The position numbers were made by a program, and so were the translations under genes. Under the pieces are notes generated by a model. The model was given only the letters and a program-made list of their open reading frames with translations, searched no databases and was not told the DNA's origin. This document shows positions 1 to 20,000 of a DNA stretch of 20,000 nt, piece by piece. Position 1 is the stretch's first letter; each line of letters opens with the position of its first letter. The stretch is from an uncultured virus (IMG/VR IMGVR_UViG_3300033463_000084) (Duplodnaviria; Heunggongvirae; Uroviricota; Caudoviricetes). Location: IMG/VR virus record IMGVR_UViG_3300033463_000084; one strand, given 5' to 3'.

Positions 1-821
1 TTAAAGAATTACAACAATTAGGCGACACTATCCGCGAATACTACGAAATTAAAAACAACATAACTGCCGACCGCTTCAAGTGGGTTGCAATGGCGCAAGG
101 CGAGAGCAGCGAGAACGCGGAGCTGCTTTATTGCGTTTTCAACGAACTGAAAGACGGCCTTTTCGCATTGTCGAACCAATCGCGGTATAACCCAGCCGAC
201 CGACGGCTGGGGTACGCCAAAAAGCTGACAAAAGCACTGGAGATTGCGAAACAAACCTACCAGCTTTGCGGCAGCGGCAAAAAGTATTCGGGCGACATTC
301 CGAATATCAACCGCGATGTGTATGAGCAAGACCGTCGGCGTTACTTTATCCGCAGGGCTGGTGCGCTGCTTACGGTCGATGTTAATCTAACCAACTCGAC
401 CGACATAATCTGCCTTGCCCGACTTTTAGAATCGCTCGACCCCGAAAAACACTACGACGATGGAGTTATCGACCTAACGCACTATATCGACAAGATACGC
501 ACCGACAACGGCAAGGAAATACCGTACTATGAGGGCGACATTTTCTTCCTGCACTTGAATCCCTACGACAGCTTGTTCGACATTTGGCACACCGACGATT
601 GTGGCGTGTTCTTGGCCACTGATAGAGGCTTTGTGAAGCTCCTATACACACAAGGGCGCGGCTACATTGACAAAGACGGCAGACCGAACATTGATGAGCA
701 ACACCATTATTCGGACTATATGCTCAACGGCAGCTCAAAGGTATTCGACATTGTGGGCAACATTCACAAAGATATTTCAGTGCTGGTTGACAAACCGCAA
801 ACCGAAGAAGAAAGGAGGTAA
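1..821 (+). CDS. Phage protein, 5'-truncated, with C-terminal YopX-like domain
   Basis: The frame of ORF 90..821 is open back to position 3 (KELQQLGDTIREYYEIK...), so the start probably lies upstream of the window. C-terminal DNGKEIPYYEGDIF...FDIVGNIH resembles the YopX signature (D..GKEIYEGDI...E/D-V/I-IGNIH). Confidence 0.65.
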   Translation, partial: KELQQLGDTIREYYEIKNNITADRFKWVAMAQGESSENAELLYCVFNELKDGLFALSNQSRYNPADRRLGYAKKLTKALEIAKQTYQLCGSGKKYSGDIPNINRDVYEQDRRRYFIRRAGALLTVDVNLTNSTDIICLARLLESLDPEKHYDDGVIDLTHYIDKIRTDNGKEIPYYEGDIFFLHLNPYDSLFDIWHTDDCGVFLATDRGFVKLLYTQGRGYIDKDGRPNIDEQHHYSDYMLNGSSKVFDIVGNIHKDISVLVDKPQTEEERR

Positions 822-823
822 TT

Positions 824-1045
824 ATGGATAAACCTTTAACAATCTCCGAGGCAAACCATATCAACAAACTGGCCGAAAACTTTTTGTGCGCGATGTTTAG
901 CGACGGCAAGTGGTGGCAAATATATAACGAGGACAAGGAAAACGCGGTGGAAACCGCGTTCAAGTATGCCGAATTGTTTTTTGAACGCGAGAAACAAACA
1001 AAAAAAAGGATAATAAGAAATGAAAAAGATAATGTTCAACGATAA
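824..1045 (+). CDS. Hypothetical phage protein (73 aa)
   Basis: Starts 2 nt after the upstream stop, is preceded by AGGAGG, and overlaps the next gene. Confidence 0.6.
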   Translation: MDKPLTISEANHINKLAENFLCAMFSDGKWWQIYNEDKENAVETAFKYAELFFEREKQTKKRIIRNEKDNVQR

Positions 1046-5313: not shown

Positions 5314-5396
5314 AAAGCAGCCGTCCGATTTTCAGTTTTTACGCCCTGCGCGGCAAAATCCGCGTTTTGAAACGATTTTTTAAATGTTTTGATGAT

Positions 5397-7229
5397 ATGA
5401 AACACTACGGGCATACTGGCAATTTAGGCCGAACCGAACCCGAATACTGGTCGGAAGAAGAATCAACTCCGTCTATCAACGGTCTTTTTGGAATCAACGA
5501 TAATCTGCAATCAATCGAAATGCAGTTGCTCACGATTGACGAACTGAAAGATTTTGGCGAAAAGATTGGCGGCTCGGCAAAAGACCGATATAACGGTCGC
5601 AAAGTAAAAGCCACTGGCGACGGCGAGAAACGCATAGACTTTAACCGCCTGCCCACCGACGATGAAGCCGCAACGCACTACGGCGATTTGAACAAAAAGT
5701 ATAGACCCCAACTTTCCGATTTTGAGGAAATTGGATTGAACAAGGTTTGCGCTCGATTATACTTGTTAAAGTATTACAGTGAGTACGGAATGTCAAGCAG
5801 TAGTTTTAAAACAATGAAAGAAGTCGCTGCTGGCAGCTCAACACAAGAGGAAATGACGGAATATTTCCTGCTCAATCGCCGGTCGCTCAACTTTGTTGAT
5901 AATTGGCACGGCTTTAAAATGAATGATGATAGCGTTTCGCCGTTCAGCCGCAACGATTACATATATGCCGCGCTCGGTATGAATCTTGAAAAAGAAATGG
6001 GCGAAGATTTTGATTGGCAGATTGTTGTCAAACAAAGCAAACGCGGCAATCAAAAATTTAGGGGTTATATCGACTGGAGCATTTTTAAAAACGAGAAAGT
6101 ATCAGTAGAAACAAAACAACGGGTATTCAACATTGAATATAGCAACACACGCGACGGCCAACCGATTTACCGCGTTATGTATTCAAACCGATTAGGCCAC
6201 GCAATTTTCACGGAACAAAAGCACTTAACCGAAAACCGCAGTTCGTATCGGTTTGATACGCACTATGTGAAAGCTGGCGATTGTTATTCGTGGGATAACT
6301 GTTTTATCAACTACGCTGACCTTTATATGGCCGGACTAAAGAAATACCTTGAAGAATACGGCAACGAGGAAAAGCCGGAAAAATGGCTCTATGAAGATAA
6401 GGTTGGCGTATTCGCCAAAATACGCGATGGCAAAGACTGGCGCAACGGACGCAACGCCGAGCCAAAAGATTTTACCGACACATTTGGCTTCCGCGCCGTA
6501 GAGTTTGGCGAAACAATGCCACAAAAGGAGCGTTGGGAACACCTTAACCGCACCTACGATTCATTTATGGACTTATGCGACATTCTCAATATCAAGCCCG
6601 AAAACATATCGCTGGGCAAAACGCTTGCAATTTGCTTCGGTTCACGCGGACGCGGAGGCAAACACGCGCCAGCAGCACACTACGAGCCAGTAAAAAAGGT
6701 TATCAATCTTACACGACGCAGTGGTGCTGGCTGTTTGGCTCACGAATGGTTCCACGCTTTCGATAATCAAATCAACACCGACCGCCACCAATTCTCGTAT
6801 GCGCCTAAAGACCGCAACCACTTGGAATACGGCACTGTTTCCGGCGCAACCGGCAACGACGATTTAACCGTTTATTTGGGATATTTCAACGACGCGACAA
6901 AAGACAAATGGTATCAGTCAAAATGTTTCAAATATTTCCTTTCTGCCGCCAAACTCGATGAGGAAGAAGGCCGCAGCAAGAAATACTGGTCAACGATTGT
7001 TGAGTGTGCGGCTCGCGGCTTTGAGTGGTACGTAATTAAGAAATTAGCCGACAAGGGTTATGTAAACGAATATTTGGCGCAGGTTGGCAAACTGCCCGAC
7101 GAGGAGCATAGACACCTCTATCCATATCCTCATACCGAAGATTTTGATAGGCTTGAAAACATTTACGACGGCATATTCAAGAGTGTGCGTCAAGTAAAAA
7201 CACCATTTGGCTTAAATACAATCCAGTAA
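5397..7229 (+). CDS. LPD1-like (large polyvalent protein-associated) zincin-domain protein
   Basis: DFGEKIGGSAKD near the N-terminus. C-terminal FGFRAVEFG...LAICFGSRGRG...AAHYEP...VINLTR..GAGCLAHEWFHAFD...YWS...ECAARGFE. The start is ATG 5397 or TTG 5367. Confidence 0.85.
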   Translation: MKHYGHTGNLGRTEPEYWSEEESTPSINGLFGINDNLQSIEMQLLTIDELKDFGEKIGGSAKDRYNGRKVKATGDGEKRIDFNRLPTDDEAATHYGDLNKKYRPQLSDFEEIGLNKVCARLYLLKYYSEYGMSSSSFKTMKEVAAGSSTQEEMTEYFLLNRRSLNFVDNWHGFKMNDDSVSPFSRNDYIYAALGMNLEKEMGEDFDWQIVVKQSKRGNQKFRGYIDWSIFKNEKVSVETKQRVFNIEYSNTRDGQPIYRVMYSNRLGHAIFTEQKHLTENRSSYRFDTHYVKAGDCYSWDNCFINYADLYMAGLKKYLEEYGNEEKPEKWLYEDKVGVFAKIRDGKDWRNGRNAEPKDFTDTFGFRAVEFGETMPQKERWEHLNRTYDSFMDLCDILNIKPENISLGKTLAICFGSRGRGGKHAPAAHYEPVKKVINLTRRSGAGCLAHEWFHAFDNQINTDRHQFSYAPKDRNHLEYGTVSGATGNDDLTVYLGYFNDATKDKWYQSKCFKYFLSAAKLDEEEGRSKKYWSTIVECAARGFEWYVIKKLADKGYVNEYLAQVGKLPDEEHRHLYPYPHTEDFDRLENIYDGIFKSVRQVKTPFGLNTIQ

Positions 7230-7233
7230 GACG

Positions 7234-8505
7234 ATGGAAAGCGCGCAGCAAATAATCGACAATCTTAACAAGAATCTGCCAGTGCTTCAAGTATATGTAG
7301 AGCAGGAACTTGTGCAAGGTAATACGGTAGGCGGCAAGCAGATAACCGACAAATGCAAAGAGTTGGGAATTGACCACAACCGCTTTATCAGTCGTGTAAA
7401 AGAGGCCATTGAAATTTCACTTATGCACGCGGCGAGGGCTATTGCCACCGACCGCAGCATAACCATTCGTCAGCGTTACGATGAGATTATCGGCTTATAC
7501 AACCGCCAGCCGGTTGTGGGTGCAAAAATGACGCTAAACCAAATGACAAAGGAGCAATATTCGACTTCGCTGCCAGTGGCCTATCTTATGAGCGAGTTTG
7601 TGAAAGACAGCGACGCAACAAGCTGGAATTGTGATAGCAACAAGGTGTTTTTTGAGCCGTCGGCTGGCAACGGCTTCTTGACAATAGCTCTGCCGCAAGA
7701 ACAAACAATCTGCAATGAGATAGACGAAAACCGACTGGTTAACTTACGCGGCGAACACTACCGTAAAGTTACCGACCAAGACGCGCTCCAACCGTTCAAC
7801 TACGGCCAAATTTTCGACGGTGTTATAACCAATCCACCGTTTTTACGCGCTGGCGGTACTGAAAAAATGATATTCAACGCCCTTGCCACAATGAAAGACA
7901 ACGGACGGTGCGCCATTATTCGCGACGGCTGGAATCAGTTTGAAAACTACTACAACACAATGCAGCGTAGCAAGTTCAATACATTCTACGATAGATTATT
8001 TACCGAATACAACGTAGTTAAAATCATAAACTTGAACAGCTACGATGTTTACGCCAAGCAAGGCACTGGCTTTCCAATGCAGCTTATTTTGATAGTCGGA
8101 CGCAATGCAAAACGCCGCACCGACACAAAGTATCGCGTCTTTAACCCCGATATTGATAAAACCGAAAAAGCTGGTTTTGAAAAACTTTGGGAGTATTTTG
8201 AAAAATATTTTCCACTCGACCAACGGCAGCAAGGTACAGCCGAAATTTTGACTTTCCGTGAAGCGTTAAAACTAAAGGTTACACGCTTGCAGCAAATGGC
8301 CAACAAAGACGAATGGAATTGCAATAGCGAAGCGGAGCGCGTCAATCGGTTAATGGCTCGCCACATATTCAATTTATACAAGCAGAATATGCTCACAATC
8401 GAAAACGACTATTTCAAAGCTGATGATACATTGATTCAATGGCACGGCCAGCCAATACCGCACCGCGCAGTCTTGTTTAAAAAAGAGATTGAACTAATGA
8501 AATAA
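7234..8505 (+). CDS. DNA N6-adenine methyltransferase-like protein (DarB/polyvalent type)
   Basis: Motif X EQYST, motif I FFEPSAGNG, NEID, motif IV NPPF and motif VIII-like YAKQGT, in gamma-class order. Confidence 0.85.
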   Translation: MESAQQIIDNLNKNLPVLQVYVEQELVQGNTVGGKQITDKCKELGIDHNRFISRVKEAIEISLMHAARAIATDRSITIRQRYDEIIGLYNRQPVVGAKMTLNQMTKEQYSTSLPVAYLMSEFVKDSDATSWNCDSNKVFFEPSAGNGFLTIALPQEQTICNEIDENRLVNLRGEHYRKVTDQDALQPFNYGQIFDGVITNPPFLRAGGTEKMIFNALATMKDNGRCAIIRDGWNQFENYYNTMQRSKFNTFYDRLFTEYNVVKIINLNSYDVYAKQGTGFPMQLILIVGRNAKRRTDTKYRVFNPDIDKTEKAGFEKLWEYFEKYFPLDQRQQGTAEILTFREALKLKVTRLQQMANKDEWNCNSEAERVNRLMARHIFNLYKQNMLTIENDYFKADDTLIQWHGQPIPHRAVLFKKEIELMK

Positions 8506-8524
8506 CAACATAAACATTAAAACA

Positions 8525-11500
8525 ATGAAGCAAATAGACATTCAGTTTCGCACATTCCGACTAAAAGACGATAGCCGGACATTCTTTTGCACCGAAGCAA
8601 AATGCGACTACAATTTGAACGTGTTAGGCGTGGCCTATATCACTATTCGCGGCAACTCGCTTCCTGCCAACTGGAACGATAGCAGCAAGTGGCAGCACCT
8701 GCCCAATGCACGGCTCAAAGACATTATCATTCCCGACGATTCGGCAACGCTCAATGGCGCATACACACCGGCGGCAGAACTTGAAAACGCCAAGTTTCTC
8801 GATGTGCTGACCCCCGACAGTATGGACGAAAGCACCGCCGAAGCGTTGAACCAGTTGAAAAAGGCCGTCGGCAACGTGGCAGAATTTGTGGCTGAAAGAC
8901 TGCAATATTCGCTTGAAGAATTGGCCGAGTGTCTTGCGCTGGAGCAAATCGACGCGGTTGCGCTGGCTATCTACAACGCCGAAGCGCGTAATCAAGGTAT
9001 GATTATTGGCGACCAAACCGGCATAGGCAAAGGCCGTGTCGCTGCCGCCTTTATCCGCTACGGTGTCATTCACGGCCACAAGCCTATATTCTTTACTGAA
9101 AACGCCTCGTTGTTTAACGACATTTACCGCGACCTTATCGACATTCATTGTGAAGATTATAAGCCGCTTATGATTAACTCAAACGCGGCACAAACCGACG
9201 ATGATGGAAACATTGTCTATTCGTGGGACGAGAAAGTGCTGAAAGCGGCTTTTGCCGACGGCAAAGTTCCCGACGATTGCCAGTATGTTTGCTGCACCTA
9301 TTCGCAGCTGCCAACCAACACAACAAAGCAGGATTTTATCGCGGCCATTGCCGAGAATAACATTATTGTACTCGACGAGGCGCACAATGCAGGCGGCGAG
9401 GTCGAATACAACAAAGACGGAGATATTGTCAGCGGCAAAATCGCAGCGTTTTTCCAAGAAAATGTTATCGGCAAGTGTAAATCGGTTATCTACCTTTCGG
9501 CCACCTACGCCAAATCGCCAAAAAATATGCCGATTTACGCGCAGAAAACGTGTATTTCCGACATTGACGATGGCGGCTACGATGTGGCCCGATACTTTGT
9601 TTCGCTGCCAGCTGCCGAAATCATCAGTTCGTCTATGGCACGATTCGGCCAGTTTATCCGTCGTGAGCGCATAACCGAAGGTATGAACGTAAACTATTAC
9701 ACTCTCGACGCTTCCGACGAGGACGCAATGAGGGCTGGCTATCCCGACTTGAAAGAGCAACATTGGCAAGTGTATCAAAACATTACCAATATTTATTCGC
9801 GGATTCGCAGATTCCAAGAAAAATATTTCCAGCCGTATTTGGCCGATATTGCCGAAACACTTGCCGCACAAGGCAGTCGCCAATCAAAACCGCCTACGGT
9901 TGCTTCGGCAAGCCTTATGAGTTCGCTTTTCCATTTGACAAACAACATTTTGCTTTCACTCAAAGCGCTGCCAGTGGCCGAGCGCACGCTCCAGCTGCTT
10001 AAAGAGGGAAAAAAGGTTGTTATTGCGCTGGCCGACACTAACGAAAGCGTATTGAAAAACCGCAACGAGGCCGGTAAAAAAGGCAACGTTGACGAGGGCG
10101 ATGATAGCGGAGTATCGGTAGAGGTTCGCGAGGGGCAGACAATCAACGCTGACTACACAAAGGTTTTCGACACCATTTTCAAAAACCTATTCTACTACAA
10201 CATACGGCAAGGCCGCAAGGTTATCGACAAGGTTTATATATCGGTTGATGAGCTTGGCGAGGAAGCCGTAGAGGAATACAAGAGCATACTCGAATTGTTT
10301 AGCAAAACCACCAGCGGATTGTGTTTTTCGCCTATTGATGTGATTCGTGAGCGTATTGAGCGCGAGGGCTACCAAATTGGCGAATGTACTGGCCGCAAAA
10401 CGCGAATTAAATTCACAAATGGCAACTACTATAATGCGACGGTAACGAATATTGACAAATTCAGCAGCAACCAAGAGAAACACAAGGCTTTATGCTTCCG
10501 CAAGTTCAATAACAACGAGATTGATGTAATGATTATCAATCAGTCCGGCTCAACCGGCAAGTCGGCACACGCAACCAACAAAAACACAAAGTTGCGCCCC
10601 GACGAGGTTAAACAGCGCGTTATGATTATCGCGCAGGCCGAACTCGATGTCAATACCGAAGTGCAGAAGCGAGGCCGTATCAACCGAACCGGCCAGTTTG
10701 CACACATACCGCCGCAGTATGAATACATATTTTCGGCCATTCCGTGCGAAAAGCGATTTATGATGATGTTGAAGGCAAAGCTCAAATCGCTCGACGCTAA
10801 CACAACCTCAAACCAAAAGAACAGTAACGAAACTGTCCTTAAAACCGACGATTTCTTTAACAAGTACGGCGATAAGATTGTGGAAGATGTTTTGAAAGCC
10901 GATTTGCGGCTGAATCACACGCTGAACGACCCATTAGGTGTTGAACCCGACCCGGTAAACCCCAAACGCACAAAACAGCGTCCGCAAGAAATGGCGCGGA
11001 CTGTGTTTGGCCGTATGCAGATTCTGCCAGCTGACGAGCAGGAAAAATACTACGATATGGTGCTTCGCGCTTATAACGCAAAGGTTGAGCAACTGAAAGC
11101 CGACGATGAGTTTGACCTCGAAATGAAAGAGGCCGATTTCCAAGCCAAGAAGATAAGCGAGAATATTCTGCGTCAAGTCGAAAATGACGGTACACACTCC
11201 GAACTGAAAGGCTCTGCGTTTCTCACGCGCTACTCAATCAAGGCACAAGCCAAATTTATGTCAGTCAAGAACATAAACGAAACGCTGAACCGCAACACGC
11301 AAAGCGGATTGGCCGACACCGACGGAATTTTGAAACGCCTCAAAGACGATTACGAGGCCGTTATCAAAGACGAGAAAGAGCGCCACGCCAACCGGCTGCA
11401 ACAAGAGATTGACCGCCAGCAAGACCGAGTAACACAAACCAGCAATACCATTGAAGATTTTATCGAGGCTGGAATGTCTGCCGAGAGAATCGACAAGCTG

Positions 11501-12769
11501 CGTGAGAATCTAAAAGAGGCCACCGCCAAGCTCAAAGACCTCAAAAAAGGCGTTGACCCCGAATTTGATGAGCGTTTGGCCGACAAAAAAGCCACATACG
11601 AGGAAATACGCAAGCTACTTGACAAACTGCGCGTAGGCCAGTATTTTGAGCGCAATTCAAATATCTACTGTGTATTGTCGGTAAACGCCAAGATAGGCGA
11701 TAGTGGCAACATTTACAACGCACCGTCGAATATTTTGATTAGCCTTACCTGCACCGACCCGATGAGTATTAAGGGCGTGAACGCAAACTTTGCAGAGAAC
11801 GACCGCGAGAACATTCTTAAAGAACTGGTTAAAAAGCCCTCGTCCGAAGCAGCTTACACCAAGTTTATCAAAGACGATTCGCGCCGCGAGGAAGTGTCAA
11901 TCATAACCGGCAACATTGTGCCGTATTTGTCGGAAGAAGGAACGGTTATCACACGTTACACGCTCTACGACGGCAGTATGGAAAACGGCATAGTTGTTAA
12001 GCCAAAACTTGTCAACGACCAATGGGAATATCCCGAATGGGCAAAATTCGCCTATATACCGCTTAACGACAAAACCATAAGGCCGATAATGTCTTCGCTT
12101 TCAAGTGAAACACGAATGAACCTTATGTCGCAAGTGGGCAATGGCGAGTTTTACATTGAGGGTCGCCGATTCGGTGGCGATATGGAGTTTGTATTGTTTG
12201 CCGAGCGCGGATATATACAATTCCTTAACCGTGAGGATATTAAAGAACAGTTTGATTTGTTGTATGGCGAAGATGTGCCGTTTGTTCAAGGTATGTTTAG
12301 GGTTACAATTAAGAACCTGCGTAAATTCCTCGAAAAACTGAACGAGTTTAATTTCTCGGCGCGAGTTGCTATTACTGCTCTTGAACACTACGCTGACGCT
12401 CTCGACTTTTCAAAATACAAGGCAAAAGACTGGATAAAGCTGTCATACGACCGCAACAAGATACCAACCGGCTACACCGGCCATAAGCCGAAACGTGTGG
12501 CTGTGCCAATGTTGCTGCTTACCGAGCTGAAATTGCTGAAATCGGGTGCCGATGTGAACGTTGACGATAATATAAGAATCATTGACTACTCCGAACACGC
12601 TTGGGCGGTTGTTGGCAACACAATGCCGATACGCTACACGCTGAAACAAAACGGCGGTCATTTCAACAAATTCTTAAAGATTGGCGGCAAGACAGTAGTA
12701 GGCTGGATATTCAGTAAAAACAAATTCAGCAAGACCGAGCTTTACAATATCATTCGCGAGGCCGCATAA
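8525..12769 (+). CDS. Strawberry-notch-family SF2 helicase (1414 aa)
   Basis: EQIDAVALAI, Walker A GDQTGIGKGR, DEAH, SAT, SGSTGKSAHA and QKRGRINRTGQ; a coiled coil; and a small C-terminal domain DYSEHAWAVVGNT...LKQNGGHFN..L....GWIFSK. Confidence 0.9.
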   Translation: MKQIDIQFRTFRLKDDSRTFFCTEAKCDYNLNVLGVAYITIRGNSLPANWNDSSKWQHLPNARLKDIIIPDDSATLNGAYTPAAELENAKFLDVLTPDSMDESTAEALNQLKKAVGNVAEFVAERLQYSLEELAECLALEQIDAVALAIYNAEARNQGMIIGDQTGIGKGRVAAAFIRYGVIHGHKPIFFTENASLFNDIYRDLIDIHCEDYKPLMINSNAAQTDDDGNIVYSWDEKVLKAAFADGKVPDDCQYVCCTYSQLPTNTTKQDFIAAIAENNIIVLDEAHNAGGEVEYNKDGDIVSGKIAAFFQENVIGKCKSVIYLSATYAKSPKNMPIYAQKTCISDIDDGGYDVARYFVSLPAAEIISSSMARFGQFIRRERITEGMNVNYYTLDASDEDAMRAGYPDLKEQHWQVYQNITNIYSRIRRFQEKYFQPYLADIAETLAAQGSRQSKPPTVASASLMSSLFHLTNNILLSLKALPVAERTLQLLKEGKKVVIALADTNESVLKNRNEAGKKGNVDEGDDSGVSVEVREGQTINADYTKVFDTIFKNLFYYNIRQGRKVIDKVYISVDELGEEAVEEYKSILELFSKTTSGLCFSPIDVIRERIEREGYQIGECTGRKTRIKFTNGNYYNATVTNIDKFSSNQEKHKALCFRKFNNNEIDVMIINQSGSTGKSAHATNKNTKLRPDEVKQRVMIIAQAELDVNTEVQKRGRINRTGQFAHIPPQYEYIFSAIPCEKRFMMMLKAKLKSLDANTTSNQKNSNETVLKTDDFFNKYGDKIVEDVLKADLRLNHTLNDPLGVEPDPVNPKRTKQRPQEMARTVFGRMQILPADEQEKYYDMVLRAYNAKVEQLKADDEFDLEMKEADFQAKKISENILRQVENDGTHSELKGSAFLTRYSIKAQAKFMSVKNINETLNRNTQSGLADTDGILKRLKDDYEAVIKDEKERHANRLQQEIDRQQDRVTQTSNTIEDFIEAGMSAERIDKLRENLKEATAKLKDLKKGVDPEFDERLADKKATYEEIRKLLDKLRVGQYFERNSNIYCVLSVNAKIGDSGNIYNAPSNILISLTCTDPMSIKGVNANFAENDRENILKELVKKPSSEAAYTKFIKDDSRREEVSIITGNIVPYLSEEGTVITRYTLYDGSMENGIVVKPKLVNDQWEYPEWAKFAYIPLNDKTIRPIMSSLSSETRMNLMSQVGNGEFYIEGRRFGGDMEFVLFAERGYIQFLNREDIKEQFDLLYGEDVPFVQGMFRVTIKNLRKFLEKLNEFNFSARVAITALEHYADALDFSKYKAKDWIKLSYDRNKIPTGYTGHKPKRVAVPMLLLTELKLLKSGADVNVDDNIRIIDYSEHAWAVVGNTMPIRYTLKQNGGHFNKFLKIGGKTVVGWIFSKNKFSKTELYNIIREAA

Positions 12770-12801: not shown

Positions 12802-14025
12802 ATGAACACTCTCAAAGAAAATCTAAAGATTATCAACGCGGCCACCATAACTGGCGATAGCCGCGAAGAAAACATTTACCGAGAACTCCGCAACTTGATT
12901 GAGGAAATCACGGACAAGTACGAAAGCCCCGAAAAACTTTCGGACGAAAAAATTGATATGACGGCGACTATCAAACAGTATGGCTACGACGCTGACGAAT
13001 ACAAAAAAATGTTTGGCAGCACCGAGCGCAGTGAGCGCGATGTGGTCGAGAATCTTGCCAATCTGCTTGTCGAAAAAGGCTACGCCAAAGCCGACGGCAA
13101 GAAAGAAGAACCCAAAAAATCGGACGATGAGGACAAGGCAAAAAAAATCAAATTGCTCAAACTCAAAGCAAAGGCCGCAAAAGCAAAACTGGCGTTAATG
13201 CAGTTGGGCTGTGTTAATGGTGTTGATGTAGCTACAAGGCCGCAAACATTCGGCGTTTCCACTGGTCGCTTATTCGACGATGAGTTACAACGCGACCGCT
13301 GGCAGAAACGATGGGATAGCAAGCGTCGCAAGTATATCTACACCGACAGCGATGATAACGAATGGTACAAAAACGAACACGGCCACTATTGTCTGCTTAA
13401 CGGCACTGGCGACCCGTCGTTCAGTTTCGATTGGGAGGGCAGGGTTGCCTATGTTAGCGGCTTCGACGCTGACGAATACGAGGCCGCGAAAGAGTTTTGT
13501 GCCTCAATGGTTGACGAGAAAGTAATGCACGGCAGCGGCTGGCATTTTGGCGCGGAGGGCTACGATAACCGCAGCCAGTCGTGGCGATTCTTTATTCTTT
13601 ACGGCGCAATGGCCGCTGGAGTTGGCAATACTGGCGAGGAAACCCCCGATAGCAAATGGTATATAAAAGCCTTTAGAAATATTAAAGAACGCTTCCCCTC
13701 TATATCGGACAGCTTTATTGAGAGCTATGTGGCCAACTATTGGGATAATTACGCCGAACTCTACGATAATCTAAACGCCTTTAAAGAACACCTCGACGAT
13801 GAGCAGGAAAATTATGCAGAGGGCGGCGAGTTGTTTGAACTTGACTGGAGCGACTACACCGAGCGCGGCACGGTTAGACCCTTGTATCACTGCGAAGATT
13901 TATACGGCGACGATTACGACTTTGCCGAAAAATGGCTGACCGAAACGCTTGCTGCCGACAATCTCTCAATCGACCGTATGTGGATAGACGAAAGAATGAA
14001 TTGCTACGAATTTTTAGCGAAATAA
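12802..14025 (+). CDS. Acidic hypothetical protein carrying the [19 protein letters not shown] motif
   Basis: 407-aa ORF with an AT-rich start context; motif at 13150-13209. Confidence 0.85.
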   Translation: MNTLKENLKIINAATITGDSREENIYRELRNLIEEITDKYESPEKLSDEKIDMTATIKQYGYDADEYKKMFGSTERSERDVVENLANLLVEKGYAKADGKKEEPKKSDDEDKAKKIKLLKLKAKAAKAKLALMQLGCVNGVDVATRPQTFGVSTGRLFDDELQRDRWQKRWDSKRRKYIYTDSDDNEWYKNEHGHYCLLNGTGDPSFSFDWEGRVAYVSGFDADEYEAAKEFCASMVDEKVMHGSGWHFGAEGYDNRSQSWRFFILYGAMAAGVGNTGEETPDSKWYIKAFRNIKERFPSISDSFIESYVANYWDNYAELYDNLNAFKEHLDDEQENYAEGGELFELDWSDYTERGTVRPLYHCEDLYGDDYDFAEKWLTETLAADNLSIDRMWIDERMNCYEFLAK

Positions 14026-14055
14026 ATGATTACTAACCTTTAATATTTTTTTAAA

Positions 14056-15384
14056 ATGAAACTATCAGCAAAAACATTGGCAGAGGACATTAAGAAAGTG
14101 GAACTGTCAGCAGAATTGATGAAATTCTACAATGAGAACTCAATCGCGGATATGGCCGAAGCATACGGTGAGGACGCGGAAATCGACGAAACCGTTGATT
14201 TGTTTGTAGAGAAAGCCAACGCCTACCTTGCGGCTCACGAAAAAAAAGAAGAACCGAAAAAGGAAGAACCAAAGAAGCCGGAGCCAAAGAAAGAGCCAAA
14301 AAAGCCCGAACCGAAAAAGGAAGAACCGAAGAAACCGGCTGGCAGCAAGCTCACACCGCAGAACCTTAAAAGCGAAATCAAGAACGTAAGCCTTTCGGCT
14401 GAACTGATGAAATTCTACGAGGAAAACTCAATCGCGGATATGGCCGAAGCATACGGCGAGGACGCAGAGATTGACGAAACAGTTGATTTGTTTGTAGAGA
14501 AAGCCAACGCCTACCTTGCAGCCAACGCTGGCAAGAAAGACGAGCCAAAAAAGCCCGAACCGAAAAAGGACGAGCCTAAAAAAAAGCCGGAAAAGAAAGC
14601 CGAGCCAAAGAAAGAGCCGAAAGAGAAAAAAGAGCCTAAAGCCAAGCAGCCAAAGAAGAAGCTGCCTGCCGCTTTGTTCAAAACTGGTTCGTGGGCAATC
14701 GACAACACTTGCGAGCGCGCCGGTATTATCAGCGAGCGTTTGAGTTATAGCGACGAGCGCGGCTGCTGGCTCTATCATATCGAGTATGTAGGCTCAAAGG
14801 AGCAATCGCTTGTGGCCGAGTGCGATTTGTCCAAAACACGCGCACCGAAAGCCATTGTGCAGACCGGCGAACTTGTACCCGAACTGCCAGCCGAAATCAA
14901 GATAATCAACCGTTATATTGCACTGGACGGCAAAAAGTTAGGCAAGATAGGCGACGAGCCGCGCCTTGTGCTGGCCGCTTTGCAGAAAATGATTATCAAC
15001 AAGCAGATTCGCAAAACCAGCAAGTATGCAAAGGAAATCAACGCTATGCAGGATTCGTTGATTAAACTTGTGAACAGCCGTGCAAAAGACGCTGAAATTA
15101 GCATTGAGCATATCGACGAACTCCGCAAGATTGTGGCACGGCAGAACGTTTCGGAAATATCGAACATATCGCGCAAATTCGTTACCCTTATCGGCCAACC
15201 CGACAAGAAGAAAGAGGCCAAAGCACTCTACGAGCGCATTATGAAACGCGCCTTTAAGGGCGATGATTCGACCGAAGCCGCCACAATGAAAAAGGCACTG
15301 AAAGCCTATATCGACGGCGAGAACGAAACCGTTTACGCCACTGGCCGCGAGTTGCGCGGTATTTACGGACTGGCTGGTATCTAA
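14056..15384 (+). CDS. Protein with a duplicated ~59-aa acidic helical module and KKEEP linkers
   Basis: 442-aa ORF with two near-identical modules, K/E/P low-complexity linkers, an SH3-like segment (FKTGSWA...YHIEY) and C-terminal LRGIYGLAGI. Confidence 0.85.
   Translation: MKLSAKTLAEDIKKVELSAELMKFYNENSIADMAEAYGEDAEIDETVDLFVEKANAYLAAHEKKEEPKKEEPKKPEPKKEPKKPEPKKEEPKKPAGSKLTPQNLKSEIKNVSLSAELMKFYEENSIADMAEAYGEDAEIDETVDLFVEKANAYLAANAGKKDEPKKPEPKKDEPKKKPEKKAEPKKEPKEKKEPKAKQPKKKLPAALFKTGSWAIDNTCERAGIISERLSYSDERGCWLYHIEYVGSKEQSLVAECDLSKTRAPKAIVQTGELVPELPAEIKIINRYIALDGKKLGKIGDEPRLVLAALQKMIINKQIRKTSKYAKEINAMQDSLIKLVNSRAKDAEISIEHIDELRKIVARQNVSEISNISRKFVTLIGQPDKKKEAKALYERIMKRAFKGDDSTEAATMKKALKAYIDGENETVYATGRELRGIYGLAGI
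14059..14523 (+). repeat. Intragenic duplication 14059-14235 / 14347-14523 (offset 288 nt)
   Basis: LSAELMKFY(N/E)ENSIADMAEAYGEDAEIDETVDLFVEKANAYLAA occurs twice. Confidence 0.95.
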
Positions 15385-15399
15385 TTAGTTAATAACCGC

Positions 15400-15433
15400 A
15401 AGTGTGGGGAGCGTTCCGCGTTCCCTGCACTTT
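15400..15433 (+). terminator. Intergenic RNA hairpin (weak terminator or mRNA stabiliser)
   Basis: 14-bp stem AAGTGTGGGGAGCG/CGTTCCCTGCACTT with three G-U pairs that work only on the + strand, a 5-nt loop and a short T tail. Confidence 0.55.
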
Positions 15434-15450
15434 AAAATTTACATTCCGTT

Positions 15451-18387
15451 ATGAGTAAATACACACCAGCCTTGTACGGCATTACCGAAGATGTTGATTC
15501 GACACTGAAAAGGTATCACAACTTTGCTTTCAATAGGCGCGACTGCGAAGAATCGCTGAACGACGATACAAAAGACGAACTCTACCGCCACGTTTTAAAA
15601 ACGTTGCTCGATTATATGGAGCAATCCGACGATGTTGTTGTTGGCGCGAAGATAAAAACCAACGACGGCAAAGAGGCTGGCGACATATTATGGCAGTCGG
15701 GCGGCTACTTTCAAGTGCGCTGGCTGGGCGATGTAGGCTCATTCGGCAAGCGGGTTAGGTGGAATGACCCCAAAAAGCCCAAAACCTATGACGCGGCCAT
15801 TGAGATATTTTTCTCAACGCCCCACATTGGAGCCGACTACCAAAAAGAAAACTGCACCGTAGAGCCAATCTACGGCGTTATATTCGACTATTACAAGTGG
15901 AAAGGCCAACCAACCGAACACCGCTTCAAGGTTGGCGACAAGGTTAAGTATGTTGGCGAAAAGCGCGGCTGGCAGACCGCCAAAGGCGCGATATGGACAA
16001 TCGTTAAAGCCTACACCAAAAAGGGAGCGCACCTATACACCGCCAGCAACGAAAAGGCAGGCACGTTGACCGATTTTACCGAATCCGATTTTGAAGCGGC
16101 CACGCCCGACGAGATTGCCAACGCACCGCAGTTGCTCACACCCGGCGAGTTGGCCGCAAAGCGTATGGCCGAAATAAACCGCAGTATGTATCACAAATAC
16201 AAGGTTGGCGACAAGGTAAGATTTCAAAAATACACGTTCAAAGACGGCAGTCAGTTTTATGTTGGTACGATTGTCGATATTGATTATACCATTAACCAGT
16301 ATATCATTCAAGACGAAAAAGATAGAAGCATAAAATACCACGTAAACGAAGCCGAAATTGACGAGTTGCTGGACGAATACACCGACCGCGCCAAACAACT
16401 CAAACTATTAAAACTCAAATCGAAAGCCGCAAAAGCAAAACTGGCGCTTATGAAGATTGACGGACTGGCCGGTTTGGGCTGGCCGCACTTTCCGTTTGTG
16501 CTTGCCATTAAGGAATTTAGGAGCGCAAAAAAACAACCAGTAAATTTATGGATTACCAACGATAACGCCGCCGTTCTTTTTGTAAAGAAAAAAGAACAAA
16601 AATCTTATCCGGCCACCTCAAACGAGTATTTATATCAGCAGTTGCTTCGGCTTTGCCGCGAGCGCGACATATTGACCCATTGGTACAACTGCAAGGTATC
16701 GCCGCAAGCATACGATTTTGCCGAACACGTTTATTCGGTTGGCACTTATTCAACCGACCTCAAGACGGAATATGAGGCAGGGAGCGTTGAGTGGTTTACC
16801 AAGCAACGGTTCGACACAATGACTGTCAAGGAAATAGAGACAAAACTCGACGAGTTGGAAACCGAAATCAAAGAGTATGTTCAAAAGATAAAAGAAGATA
16901 ACTCCACCATTGAGAGGCTGAAAGAGGGCAGCTATTGGCGCGAACAATACGACACAATAAAGAGCAAACACCCCGACGCTATTCTGCTTTTCCGTGTGGG
17001 CGACTTTTACGAAGCCTACTACAACGACGCGAAAGAGATAGCCCCAATACTGGACATTACGCTCACAACCGCTGGCGATAGCAAAATGGCCGGCTTCCCA
17101 GCCTACGCCATTGACACCTATCTGCCCAAACTTGTACGTGCAGGCAAGCGCGTGGCTGTTTGCGACAATATTATCGACAATAAATTAGTCAAAAAAGGCG
17201 CTGGCAACCTTAATCTGCTCAAACTCAAAGCCAAAGCCGCGAAAGCAAAGCTGGCGTTAATGCAGCTGGACGGCTTCGATTTGGGAATGGCCGTCCACCA
17301 CAACAGTCCCTACTTGCTGAAACGTGCCGACGGTTCATTTATCGACCCCGAAACTGGCGAGTGTTTAGGCTTTGACCACCGATTTATGGCAAGTGGCGAG
17401 GGTTGTCAGTCGCACGGCTGGGGCAGTTATTTTAGTGAGAATGATAGACGAAATTATGCTAATAATCAGCGCAATCCCAACAAATACAAAGGGGTAACGT
17501 CCGACGAAATCGACAAACTCAATCTTGAAAGAACGGAGCGCGTCATTGCAATGTGCATATTAGGCGATATGGACTTATATCCGCAACGCACGGTAGAGGA
17601 ACTTATACAAGAATACATACGCGATATTAAGATAAATACTGCGCTGGTAGAAAAAAAACTGGCCTTGCTGTTAAAAATCAAAAATATCGGCGATGACAGC
17701 GTGAAATATTGGAACAAATCGGTTGAAAGACAAAAGTTGTGCGAGAAGATTGATAAGATACTTGGCGACAGCGAGGCTGGGCGAAATGTATATATGAACA
17801 TTGCTTCGTCGCTGCGATACGACCGTATGGCTTTCAGTCGAATCATAAACGAATACGAAACTACCTGCGATTCGGTGTGTGTCGAAAATGAGGAAGAATT
17901 GGCTGCGTTTGAAAGATTAAACCCCGATGATTTTGAGCGCGTCGAAAAAGAACGCCACCACTACGAGGTTGAAATTCCCGACAACGACGGCACAAACTAT
18001 ATTGAAGAACAAAAGAATTTGACCGACAAGCAAATACAAATGGTGCTGGACGGTTTAAGCCGATGGAAAGTTATTGATGTTCGCACTAACGACTGGCTAA
18101 AACCATACACAAACCCCGACGGCAAACCGTATTCTTACTTGCGCGGCGGTAACTGGAAAGGCGAAAACCTATACAAAGAATTTTGCGCGGCCTTTGATTA
18201 CGAACACAATTATAGAGCTATGAAGCCAGCCGACGCTGGCCGACGCGCCAGCCAATTCCTGCACGATTGCGGATTTGTCGGCATACATTATAGCAGTTAT
18301 TCCGACGGCGAATGTTATGTCATTTTCGACGAAAACGACGCGAAGATTACCAGCCATAATTTATTTGGGCCCGAAACCAATAAATAA
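15451..18387 (+). CDS. Polyvalent protein: two SH3/KOW-like modules, MutS domain I and an ADP-ribosyltransferase-like domain
   Basis: FKVGDKVK and [31 protein letters not shown]...MAGFP...[16 protein letters not shown] at 16945-17166. VHHNSP...[15 protein letters not shown]...GFVGIHY...YVIFD. Two copies of the basic motif. Confidence 0.85.
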
Positions 18388-20000
18388 AAAAAACTGAAAC
18401 TATGAACGTGATTAAAGATGTATTGCCCCACTTGTTGAGCAAAAAATATAAATGCGAACCCGACGGACGCATAATTGACCCACAAGGCAGAAAAACCGAT
18501 GTGTGGTTTACCGACGATTGTTTGTTTGCCGTCCGTTGTGGTGCGCCCGATGTTGCAAAGCGCGTTTTGGCCGTAGCCAAGATACTGCAAGGCGTAAAAT
18601 GGCAATACGTGCTGCCAATCGCAGCCAATGGCAGCGACTTGTTGTTTGTCGATTTGGAATCAGCAAAAGATTTTGGCAAGTTATACGAAACGTTTTTAGA
18701 CCGCGACAGCATAAACCCTCTTTGGGGGCGCGGCGGCTATGCCGGTTGGCAAAAGGATATTGAAAAGCATTATACTGGCAAGCCGGGCGAGTTGGATAAT
18801 TGCATTGCCTCTAATTTCATTAGAGAATTTTATAGCCAGTTCGGAATCGAATACGATTTGGACGAAACCAAAAAGGCTCTCAACAAGATTGATTATGGCG
18901 CATTGGTGGCCGAGTTTTGCAGACATTTAGAGGTTCTGCAAAAGTACGACAACGACCAATCAACGCCTTATTCGACAAAATCGGACTTGCTTGCATACGC
19001 CCGAAACCGAATCGTCGAAATAGACAAAGGCAAAACACTTTACGGCCAGCTGGAAAGCCGCTACAAATGGGCTTTTGTCAACACTCCGGCTATTCCCAAA
19101 AAGGATATTGGCAAAATCGTCAGCGACTTTGCCAGCACTGATTATATAAGGCCACAACTAACCGGCATTTATCACGACCCCGACGGCTACGCGGTGGCAA
19201 CCGACACTTACACACTGATTGCCACGCCAAAAGTTTTCGACGCTAAACGCAGCGGCGAAATTGTCGCCCCCGACGGCAAGAAAATAGATGGTATCTATGT
19301 CAACTGGCGTGCGGTTGTTCCGTCGCTCGACAAATACTGCAAGCTGCCAATCAATATCGGCCAGTTATGCGAGTTTGTGTTGACGGCTAAAAGGCAGGCC
19401 GAAGTGAAGCGTGTTCAAACGCCCACAAAAGAATATATTGCGATACAAGCGTTACACCCAACCACAAACGAGCCGATAAGGATTGTTTTTGAAAGCACAC
19501 ACATACTGCGATTTCTTACCGCTGCAACCACGTTTGGCAACGGGTCATTATACGTAACAAGAAACGACGCAACGGCATATTGCAGCATACTATTGTTTCA
19601 AACTGACGAGGAAAGGCCGTCGTATGTATTGGCTGTGCCTTGCCACGCAAGCGGTTATGACTTTTTGGCTGGCCGTATTTTTGCAAACCGATATTTGCTT
19701 GATTTGGATTTTAATACCGTTTTCGCCAATGTTTTCGACGCAACCAACCAGCAGCCAACCAGCGGCGGCGATAAAACCAAACAACTCAAATTACTGAAAC
19801 TGAAAGCCAAAGCAGCAAAAGCAAAATTAGCGTTAATGCAGCTGGACGGCTTCGATTTGGGAATGTCCGTCCACCATAATAGCCCCCACTTGCTGAAACG
19901 TGCCGACGGCTCATTTATCGACCCCGAAACCGGCGAGCGTTTAGGCTTCGACCATAAGTTTATGTCAACTGGCGAGGGCGCACAAGCGCACGGCTGGGGA
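17215..20000 (+). repeat. Dispersed duplication 17215-17424 / 19791-20000
   Basis: Colinear, ungapped and highly similar DNA, e.g. the shared GCGTTAATGCAGCTGGACGGCTTCGATTTGGGAATG. The second copy runs off the window. Confidence 0.95.
18402..20000 (+). CDS. Polyvalent protein, 3'-truncated: beta-clamp-like domain, basic motif, start of a second ART-like domain
   Basis: Missing from the ORF track because it has no stop in the window. Hand translation from ATG 18402 (MNVIKDVLPHLL...) is open for 533 codons and ends ...GEGAQAHGWG. Confidence 0.85.
   Translation, partial: MNVIKDVLPHLLSKKYKCEPDGRIIDPQGRKTDVWFTDDCLFAVRCGAPDVAKRVLAVAKILQGVKWQYVLPIAANGSDLLFVDLESAKDFGKLYETFLDRDSINPLWGRGGYAGWQKDIEKHYTGKPGELDNCIASNFIREFYSQFGIEYDLDETKKALNKIDYGALVAEFCRHLEVLQKYDNDQSTPYSTKSDLLAYARNRIVEIDKGKTLYGQLESRYKWAFVNTPAIPKKDIGKIVSDFASTDYIRPQLTGIYHDPDGYAVATDTYTLIATPKVFDAKRSGEIVAPDGKKIDGIYVNWRAVVPSLDKYCKLPINIGQLCEFVLTAKRQAEVKRVQTPTKEYIAIQALHPTTNEPIRIVFESTHILRFLTAATTFGNGSLYVTRNDATAYCSILLFQTDEERPSYVLAVPCHASGYDFLAGRIFANRYLLDLDFNTVFANVFDATNQQPTSGGDKTKQLKLLKLKAKAAKAKLALMQLDGFDLGMSVHHNSPHLLKRADGSFIDPETGERLGFDHKFMSTGEGAQAHGWG

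Follow-up and report, generated by a model that had tools for sequence, protein, structure and literature searches.

A 21-residue peptide shared by polyvalent-type proteins of Bacteroidota phages: a possible docking handle for anti-defence modules

The cargo-loading peptides of encapsulins and the coat-binding helices of P22-type scaffolding proteins are C-terminal, and a short peptide suffices for loading; the capsid targeting sequence of phage T4 is an N-terminal leader of about 10 residues, which is cut off by the prohead protease. Here we describe a 21-residue peptide, hereafter the tag, that recurs in proteins encoded on a stretch of 20,000 nucleotides (the window) from the uncultured Caudoviricetes virus IMGVR_UViG_3300033463_000084. 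In phage P1, a helix bundle of complementary charge fixes DarA and Hdf to the inside of the capsid wall; the remaining Dar proteins need these two, and the DarB methylase-helicase is packaged via them as anchors (PMC12810830). A polyvalent protein of the LPD1 type is recorded in phi24B virions by proteomics in the accessible part of a bioRxiv preprint, and packaging has been predicted for prophage-encoded polyvalent proteins. The available text of Iyer et al. 2017 (PMC5512222) gives the repertoire of the polyvalent proteins of phages, prophages and conjugative elements as LPD1, LPD3, LPD11, ART-PolyVal, Kinase-PolyVal, PBECR, MuF_C and a methylase-helicase dyad; it treats domains, proposes processing by zincins, and describes no conserved peptide at junctions or termini.

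The system studied here draws on the same repertoire, with LPD1, MutS_I and a Sno-type helicase in the window, ART-PolyVal in a neighbouring open reading frame (ORF) of 1053 residues and further members in tag-bearing relatives. By the description in the available text of Iyer et al. 2017 (PMC5512222), the tag carriers qualify as genuine polyvalent-type modules. Unlike the proteins presented there, the modules of this locus are distributed among several genes, with one peptide in common. The likeness to the P1 Dar system lies in the anti-restriction cargo, which includes a methylase-helicase, and in what would be recruitment from helix to helix. The difference is that P1 uses dedicated anchor proteins as compared to one short peptide on every cargo, and no sequence similarity between the two systems was seen.

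We propose, with a probability of about one half, that the tag is a lineage-specific, helix-forming docking handle of 21 residues that serves a Dar-like polyvalent system of early anti-defence modules. Once the readings that fit poorly (below) are set aside, what is left is a tag whose effect would lie in the peptide itself, whichever module bears it, and whose copies are held alike inside each genome; from this we infer that it binds a protein. Each module would carry the handle at its C-terminal end, behind a flexible charged spacer, and the gene would either stop right after position 21 or run on by way of (D/E/S/N)-G to the module that follows. The handle displayed would then be the same whether the modules are fused or split. 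The handles of one genome would contact one common genome-encoded partner, or one another, and a newly acquired module would be recruited with the rest through the shared handle. By analogy with P1 Dar, the likeliest purpose would be procapsid loading, with the modules entering the host together with the DNA, and virion loading is plausible on that analogy.

Four copies of the peptide were reported in the window by a first-pass annotation, and translation of the intervals 13150-13209, 16402-16464, 17212-17274 and 19788-19850 returned exactly the peptides quoted for them. A six-frame fuzzy search of the window recovered these four copies and no others, and the back-translated core of the tag gave four matches in the window, as compared to 0.00 expected from 200 dinucleotide-preserving shuffles. 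The motif D(K/R)(A/T)K(K/Q)(I/L) stands directly 5' of three of the four copies, as had been noted; the third copy has GAGNLN at this place. Alignment of the contig copies with the variants of relatives yielded an ungapped unit of 21 positions, which begins upstream of the peptides as first quoted, at window positions 13144, 16396, 17206 and 19782. All four units (W1 to W4) are on the plus strand. W1 (13144..13206) is internal in ORF 12802-14025, with an acidic N-domain of ~100 residues before it and a C-domain after it; the spacer ...EEPKKSDDEDKAK precedes the tag and G follows, and orthologues keep a tag at the same boundary. W2 (16396..16458) is internal in ORF 15451-18387, W3 (17206..17268) comes right after the MutS_I domain of the same ORF, and W4 (19782..19844) is internal in ORF 18402-20000+, each of the three being followed by DG.

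The first half of the unit is charged and alternating, and the second half is hydrophobic. Positions 1-4 read (K/R/Q/N)-hydrophobic-(K/R/N)-L, and at positions 5-11 Ala/Leu takes turns with Lys (or Glu). The remainder, positions 12-21, is mainly hydrophobic with two or three charges, ending in L-M/V-x-I/L/M. On the 5' side lies a hydrophilic spacer, which frequently ends in D-(K/R)-x-(K/R)-(K/R/Q), and on the 3' side either a stop codon or (D/E/S/N)-G. The tag corresponds to no named domain, in agreement with the first impression: none of 17 tag segments matched a Pfam-A family at E up to 10, no family covered the tags in the carriers, and a PDB profile search gave only two chance matches (E 3.2), such that no solved structure matches the tag.

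The window is part of a metagenome contig of 76,966 bp, with window position 1 at contig position 33,680. The contig sequence covered here amounts to 29,086 bases, i.e. the window and 9 kb downstream, and contains eight tag copies, four in the window and four just beyond it. The fifth copy is internal in the 1254-residue continuation of ORF 18402. The other three are on the minus strand: the 1053-residue ART-PolyVal ORF contains one internal tag and another that constitutes its last 21 residues, and the next ORF, of 249 residues, has a tag near its N-terminus, from residue 5. The latter ORF starts 12 nucleotides after the tag-ended one, in another frame, with MENKK followed by the tag. Two tags are thereby placed back to back across a gene boundary (L001 4069-4137; contig 58,804-58,872), 89 nucleotides apart and in different frames. 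No homologue of near length was found for the 249-residue ORF except itself, and in the relative P0130 and in a prophage with Glu-containing tags (the E-type prophage, below) its domain is fused behind a single internal tag.

The similarity among the copies is retained in the protein. Across all eight contig copies, the Nei-Gojobori method gave a mean proportion of synonymous differences (pS) of 0.71, which is near saturation, and a mean proportion of nonsynonymous differences (pN) of 0.12. The earlier statement that the peptide is conserved beyond its DNA was thus confirmed. The ratio dN/dS is roughly 0.06, a rough value since dS is saturated. Pairwise, the window copies are identical at 58-64 of 84 nucleotides and differ synonymously in 5-10 of 28 codons. 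For two related prophages, the tags showed pS values of 0.64 and 0.42 against pN values of 0.15 and 0.04, and terminal tags are conserved as strongly as internal ones. The domains that follow W3 and W4 are homologous, with 48-50% identity, and differ with a pN of 0.34 as compared to 0.06 for the two tags at equal pS. Low pN at saturated pS indicates that the likeness is kept at the protein level and is not the result of recent duplication or gene conversion.

A total of 50 de-duplicated instances of the tag were collected, of which two chance matches (non-Bacteroidota and without the second half) and one duplicate were excluded, leaving 47. The protein ends exactly at position 21 in 18 of these, one residue short of it in two, 1-2 residues beyond it in three and 7-10 residues beyond it in four. 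The remaining 20 lie inside their proteins, including one that is only four residues away from the N-terminus. With 27 of the 47 at the C-terminus or at most 10 residues from it and one near the N-terminus, the tag belongs to the upstream module, as the first-pass annotation had suggested. The DNA shows stop codons right after position 21, with the next gene 5-21 nucleotides further on. The 18 protein-ending tags imply that the tag works without a downstream module, and conserved copies at the extreme C-terminus fit poorly with a passive spacer or a pure cleavage site.

This distribution differs from that of the N-terminal T4 signal, since only one of the 47 tags is near an N-terminus. It is more like that of the encapsulin and scaffolding peptides, in that 18 tags end the protein and nine more lie at most 10 residues from its end, on unrelated modules, while 20 are internal. 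With 21 residues, the tag is longer than the T4, encapsulin and P22 peptides, is often internal and has genome-specific variants, here referred to as dialects.

The same modules occur both fused and split at the tag. P0139, in which an acidic domain and a tag are followed by a stop, is the unfused form of P0126, P0143 and ORF 12802, in which a C-domain follows. P0141 (MutS_I with a tag near its end) and the 978-residue protein of the window likewise represent a split and a fused version, and three consecutive genes of a prophage with Lys-type tags (the K-type prophage) correspond to the fused proteins of the window, split at the tag.

Tags between modules, and stand-alone versions that end exactly at position 21 as if at a cut point, could also be expected of a processing site or hinge, at which the helix and the (D/E)-G would direct a phage or host protease to cut the chain into single modules. 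A zincin (HEWFH)/LPD1 gene is located in the same gene row (5367-7229) and would be the protease, unless a prohead protease takes this part, and metallopeptidase processing of polyvalent proteins is proposed in the available text of Iyer et al. 2017 (PMC5512222). Yet the 18 tags at the very C-terminus leave nothing to cut and are equally conserved. The residues after position 21 vary (DG, EG, SG, NG, G, SD, GD, NI), and a Gly at this place may just cap the helix. Neither of two related prophage contigs with tags encodes a homologue of the window's zincin/LPD1 protein, and a scan of 55 proteins in a complete prophage, which has four internal tags, detected no MPTase family. Known cleavage sites need far fewer than 21 conserved residues, and taken together we consider processing an unlikely explanation. 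A ribosome-skipping (2A-like) junction was also considered, and was rejected because the junction residues are not conserved.

The preference for the exact C-terminal end with hydrophobic last residues (...LMKI-COOH) has a parallel in the hydrophobic C-terminal tails that act as bacterial degrons (ssrA-type). The tag could accordingly mark the effectors for timed degradation by a host protease, but 20 of the 47 copies lie inside proteins and one at an N-terminus, known degrons do not have such a long charged first half and no context supports this function, which makes a degron very improbable.

Two segments of the region have close relatives at the DNA level. Window positions 17277-18347 and window-extended positions 25888-27500 are 96.8% and 93.9% identical, respectively, to the K-type prophage contig, which belongs to a Salinivirgaceae metagenome-assembled genome (MAG), whereas the rest of the region is 64-78% identical or cannot be aligned. 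The patchy identity indicates recent module exchange and suggests a Bacteroidales host similar to Salinivirgaceae.

Both stretches of high identity break within about 10 nucleotides of a tag edge, and the 96.8% one starts 9 nucleotides after W3. This is consistent with the tag being a cassette boundary without a binding role, a junction that spares the modules in recombinants or provides short homology for their exchange, perhaps by way of the neighbouring RecA/Sak4-like ATPase. The architectures are highly mosaic, the tag copies share exact DNA runs of 8-21 nucleotides, and a KaiC/Sak4-like ATPase is always present alongside the tag system. However, the peptide persists although synonymous differences have almost reached saturation, so that the target of selection is the protein rather than identity of the DNA, and a pure DNA-homology junction fits poorly. 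A junction that merely tolerates breaks would not keep 19-21 residues identical, and terminal tags have no second module to protect. We therefore find it doubtful that the tag is only a boundary.

Comparison among genomes also bears on whether the tag is a docking handle or a binder of generic targets. The mean tag identity over the 21 positions is 0.80 for the eight copies of this contig, 0.78 for the five copies of the K-type prophage, which fall into two sub-types, 0.94 for three ungapped copies of the four in the E-type prophage, 0.71 for the two copies of the related contig G001 and 0.58 for the two copies of Flavobacterium profundi. Between genomes, the mean identities for all pairs range from 0.33 to 0.64. 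At the orthologous boundary in the ORF 12802 family, the tag takes the dialect of its own genome. Since the tags of any one genome are nearly alike, in contrast to those of different genomes, we infer a common partner encoded by the genome, or contact of the tags with one another.

The first-pass annotation had described the peptide as basic and had counted DNA among its possible targets. The K-type tags have indeed a net charge of +6 to +8, and synthetic (KA)n peptides, which feature in work on peptide-starPEG/hyaluronic-acid hydrogels and on peptide coacervates, bind polyanions. A Lys-rich helix might thus tether the modules to phage DNA or to a membrane for co-delivery; P1 Hdf and DarA also contact DNA, according to the accessible part of PMC12810830. 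In the E-type prophage, by contrast, all four tags read R-I-R-I-A-E-A-E-A-E-A-A-L-A-L-L-E-L-V, with three central Lys replaced by Glu at the same boundaries and a net charge of -1 to -2; one genome of this type was found. Basicity as the defining property, and DNA as the target, are therefore disfavoured, and generic DNA binding would not need genome-specific dialects.

The predicted structure is also of relevance for this question. The hydrophobic residues follow the pattern h-p-h-p-h-p-h, repeated every seven positions, and on a helix they form two stripes on opposite sides. The helical hydrophobic moment at 100 degrees is low (0.07-0.23), unlike that of a classical surface-seeking amphipathic helix, and the periodicity has its maximum near 160 degrees. 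The tag thus has neither the conserved positive charge nor the high moment of a basic amphipathic helix that binds DNA or membranes. The Glu dialect and the low moment fit poorly with a generic binder of either kind, for which we see very little likelihood. The composition of Ala, Leu and Lys probably favours a helix. AlphaFold2 monomer models presented the tag as a helix between coil, with the secondary structure predicted at low to moderate confidence. In ORF 12802, the helix spans H109-134 at a confidence score (pLDDT) of about 37-49, and at the end of the 1053-residue ORF the helices H13-32 and H116-153 surround a small folded domain at pLDDT 75-85. The modest confidence would be expected for a helix that packs on nothing in a monomer.

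The tag is attached to a broad set of modules. These comprise MutS_I, ART-PolyVal, LPD3, LPD11, PBECR2/3, PBECR5, Kinase-PolyVal, MuF_C proteins, a methylase and SNF2/Sno helicases. The Pfam domains of the carriers and the selection at the protein level both support the earlier description of a portable peptide on unrelated modules of anti-defence type. The contexts upstream of the four window copies had been described as unrelated, and a BLASTP comparison of the 200 residues 5' of each copy, with self-overlap as the only result, agrees with this. The MutS_I domain upstream of W3 was confirmed by a Pfam match, whereas the labels "SH3-like" and "beta-clamp-like" for two of the other contexts, which have no significant Pfam match, were left unconfirmed. 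Among 120 listed homologues of the 978-residue protein, 16 carry a variant of the tag and most of the others are cellular MutS; the tag-bearing ones are mosaics with Kinase-PolyVal, LPD11, MuF_C, PBECR5 and LPD3. In Flavobacterium profundi and in a Cytophagaceae MAG, SNF2 helicases end with the tag.

Three genes of the window, all on the plus strand, encode carriers. The protein of 12802..14025 (407 residues) consists of a small acidic N-domain, a spacer, the tag and a C-domain. The one encoded at 15451..18387 (978 residues) has the order module, tag, module with MutS_I, tag and conserved domain. The third, at 18402..20000, is open at the 3' end in the window and has 1254 residues and two tags on the contig. 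Upstream of these genes, and also on the plus strand, lie those for the LPD1/zincin (HEWFH) protein (5367-7229), an untagged methyltransferase (7234-8505) and an untagged Strawberry-notch-type helicase (8525-12769). The last two (7234-12769) constitute a DarB-like dyad, and both are C-terminally tagged in the relative G001; a full tag closes the methylase orthologues of G001 and P0013. The end of the window methyltransferase (8470-8505, ...LFKKEIELMK) resembles the last six positions of the tag and may be a decayed copy, to judge from this similarity.

Another feature of the same protein set is found at module boundaries that lack a tag. These often contain (L/M)-x-G-(L/I)-G or L-F-G-(L/V)-x-G, with examples at window positions 17269-17290 and 19845-19866, and several proteins of the set begin with M-x-x-x-E-G-L-G-S. 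By its sequence, the Gly-rich boundary is a second, shorter junction motif.

A candidate for the partner of the tag is encoded between the carriers. The untagged companion at 14056..15384 (plus strand, 442 residues) has two acidic domains of ~60 residues (...AYGEDAEIDETVD...), KPEPKK-rich stretches and a C-domain, for which ESM Atlas gave no usable match. The two acidic domains (...SAELMKFY.ENSIADMAEAYGEDAEIDETVDLFVEKANAYLAA) represent an internal duplication, each copy being followed by a low-complexity stretch rich in Lys, Pro and Glu (KPEPKK repeats), and relatives hold one copy. It is conceivable, if rather improbable, that the tag is an address label read by the acidic N-domain of this family, which would act as a hub that, with a KaiC/RadA-like ATPase, feeds tagged modules into the procapsid. 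The ORF 14056 family is itself untagged, and both it and the ATPase are present in five tag-bearing elements with enough context (the window contig, the K-type and E-type prophages, G001 and L070). The two are fused in G001 and in Flavobacterium profundi, where the fusion directly follows a tag-ended helicase.

The charges of this family were compared in a scan of nine proteins common to two K-type genomes and the E-type genome. The acidic patch in the ~60-residue N-domain displayed the sole compensating charge shift outside the tags, with -8 and -7 in the two K-type genomes against -1 in the single E-type genome. The patch is also strongly acidic in G001, and three K-type genomes span -6 to -8. 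In the ORF 12802 family, where a paralogous copy of this domain stands before the tag, the acidity is retained in the E-type genome. The lead comes from one E-type genome and from co-occurrence that is linked to lineage, and is thus not independent of shared ancestry. If true, it would amount to recognition of a C-terminal signal in the manner of ClpX or a coupling protein, which is not yet described for tailed phages.

The distribution of the tag was examined with a profile built from 17 tags, mainly of the Lys type, with which other dialects may be under-counted. A search of 1.84 billion representative proteins identified 19 proteins at E up to 0.001, three of them from this contig. When 185,579 species genomes were scanned with degenerate DNA, 104 loci were returned, mostly chance matches in GC-rich genomes, and the tags confirmed by the profile were all on Bacteroidota contigs, except for one MAG of Candidatus Peregrinibacteria. 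In the latter, contig L035 has a frame of 103 residues (560-868, minus strand) that ends in a good tag (RLRLAKAKAKARIRKIKLLAI), which could mean that the host range is wider or that a phage contig was assigned to the wrong bin. In five whole genomes (2.6-4.3 Mb), all matches at E<0.1 were confined to a single contig in each; an occurrence in housekeeping proteins, which the first-pass annotation had named as evidence against its proposal, was thus not observed outside that one contig.

Among the carriers of the tag are a Flavobacterium strain in culture and several Bacteroidales prophages from rumen and gut. One of the five single contigs, G003:C156, contains a complete prophage that is bounded by an integrase and an M15 endolysin and also encodes tail fibres and a DnaC-like loader. 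G001 is an IMG/VR contig with a baseplate hub and an integrase, in which the methylase and the helicase each end with a tag. For the window itself, the phage assignment comes from PHROG matches only. On the Flavobacterium profundi contig L093 (3293-10683), we observed a row consisting of an Eco57I-type methylase, a tag-ended ORF of 94 residues, a tag-ended SNF2 helicase and a protein of 884 residues composed of an acidic N-domain and a KaiC-like ATPase. From these gene contents, the tag system belongs to a group of temperate Bacteroidota phages and to the polyvalent regions of their prophages.

Exact-peptide DNA scans gave no match in collections of viral and genome contigs, and in metagenome contigs only on the contig itself, suggesting that the exact dialect is unique to this contig in those collections. 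A megablast search with window 12802-20000 detected no near-identical DNA in phage or plasmid collections, and a search for related loci with the 1254-residue protein found no relative. No tag was seen in four viral contigs that share the conserved domain following W3 in the 978-residue protein, nor in Bacteroides phage BS-TP4, the 5391-residue polyvalent gp3 of which adjoins the portal gene. Since these have related modules without it, polyvalent proteins do not carry the tag as a rule. A literature search, by full text for the core peptide string and by topic for linkers of polyvalent proteins, found no description of such a phage peptide, and the word "linker" is absent from the available text of Iyer et al. 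2017 (PMC5512222).

Several observations weigh against a docking handle. For the binding partner there are candidates only, and a search of three genomes found no helix with mirrored charges, of the E-coil/K-coil type. In the complete related prophage, the head genes show no match to a known family, so that only analogy links the tag to the virion. The likeness within a genome could partly be due to common descent or to old gene conversion. The dialects are not fully uniform, as the K-type prophage has two sub-dialects and the two Flavobacterium copies are only 0.58 alike. The 20 internal copies would have to act as internal helices or become accessible through cleavage. In the window, neither the methylase nor the helicase is tagged, whereas their G001 counterparts are.

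Anti-defence enzymes that are brought into the cell must each enter the particle, yet they rank among the fastest-shuffled genes. If the docking handle proposed here is true, a shared, portable and genome-specific peptide would explain how the cargo can be freely swapped, split and fused without losing delivery. The tag is a concrete element of 21 residues that can be tested. Should it be sufficient for loading, it would be a candidate tag for bringing foreign proteins into phage heads, and should it be only a junction, it would still define an assembly grammar for the multi-enzyme proteins of these phages.

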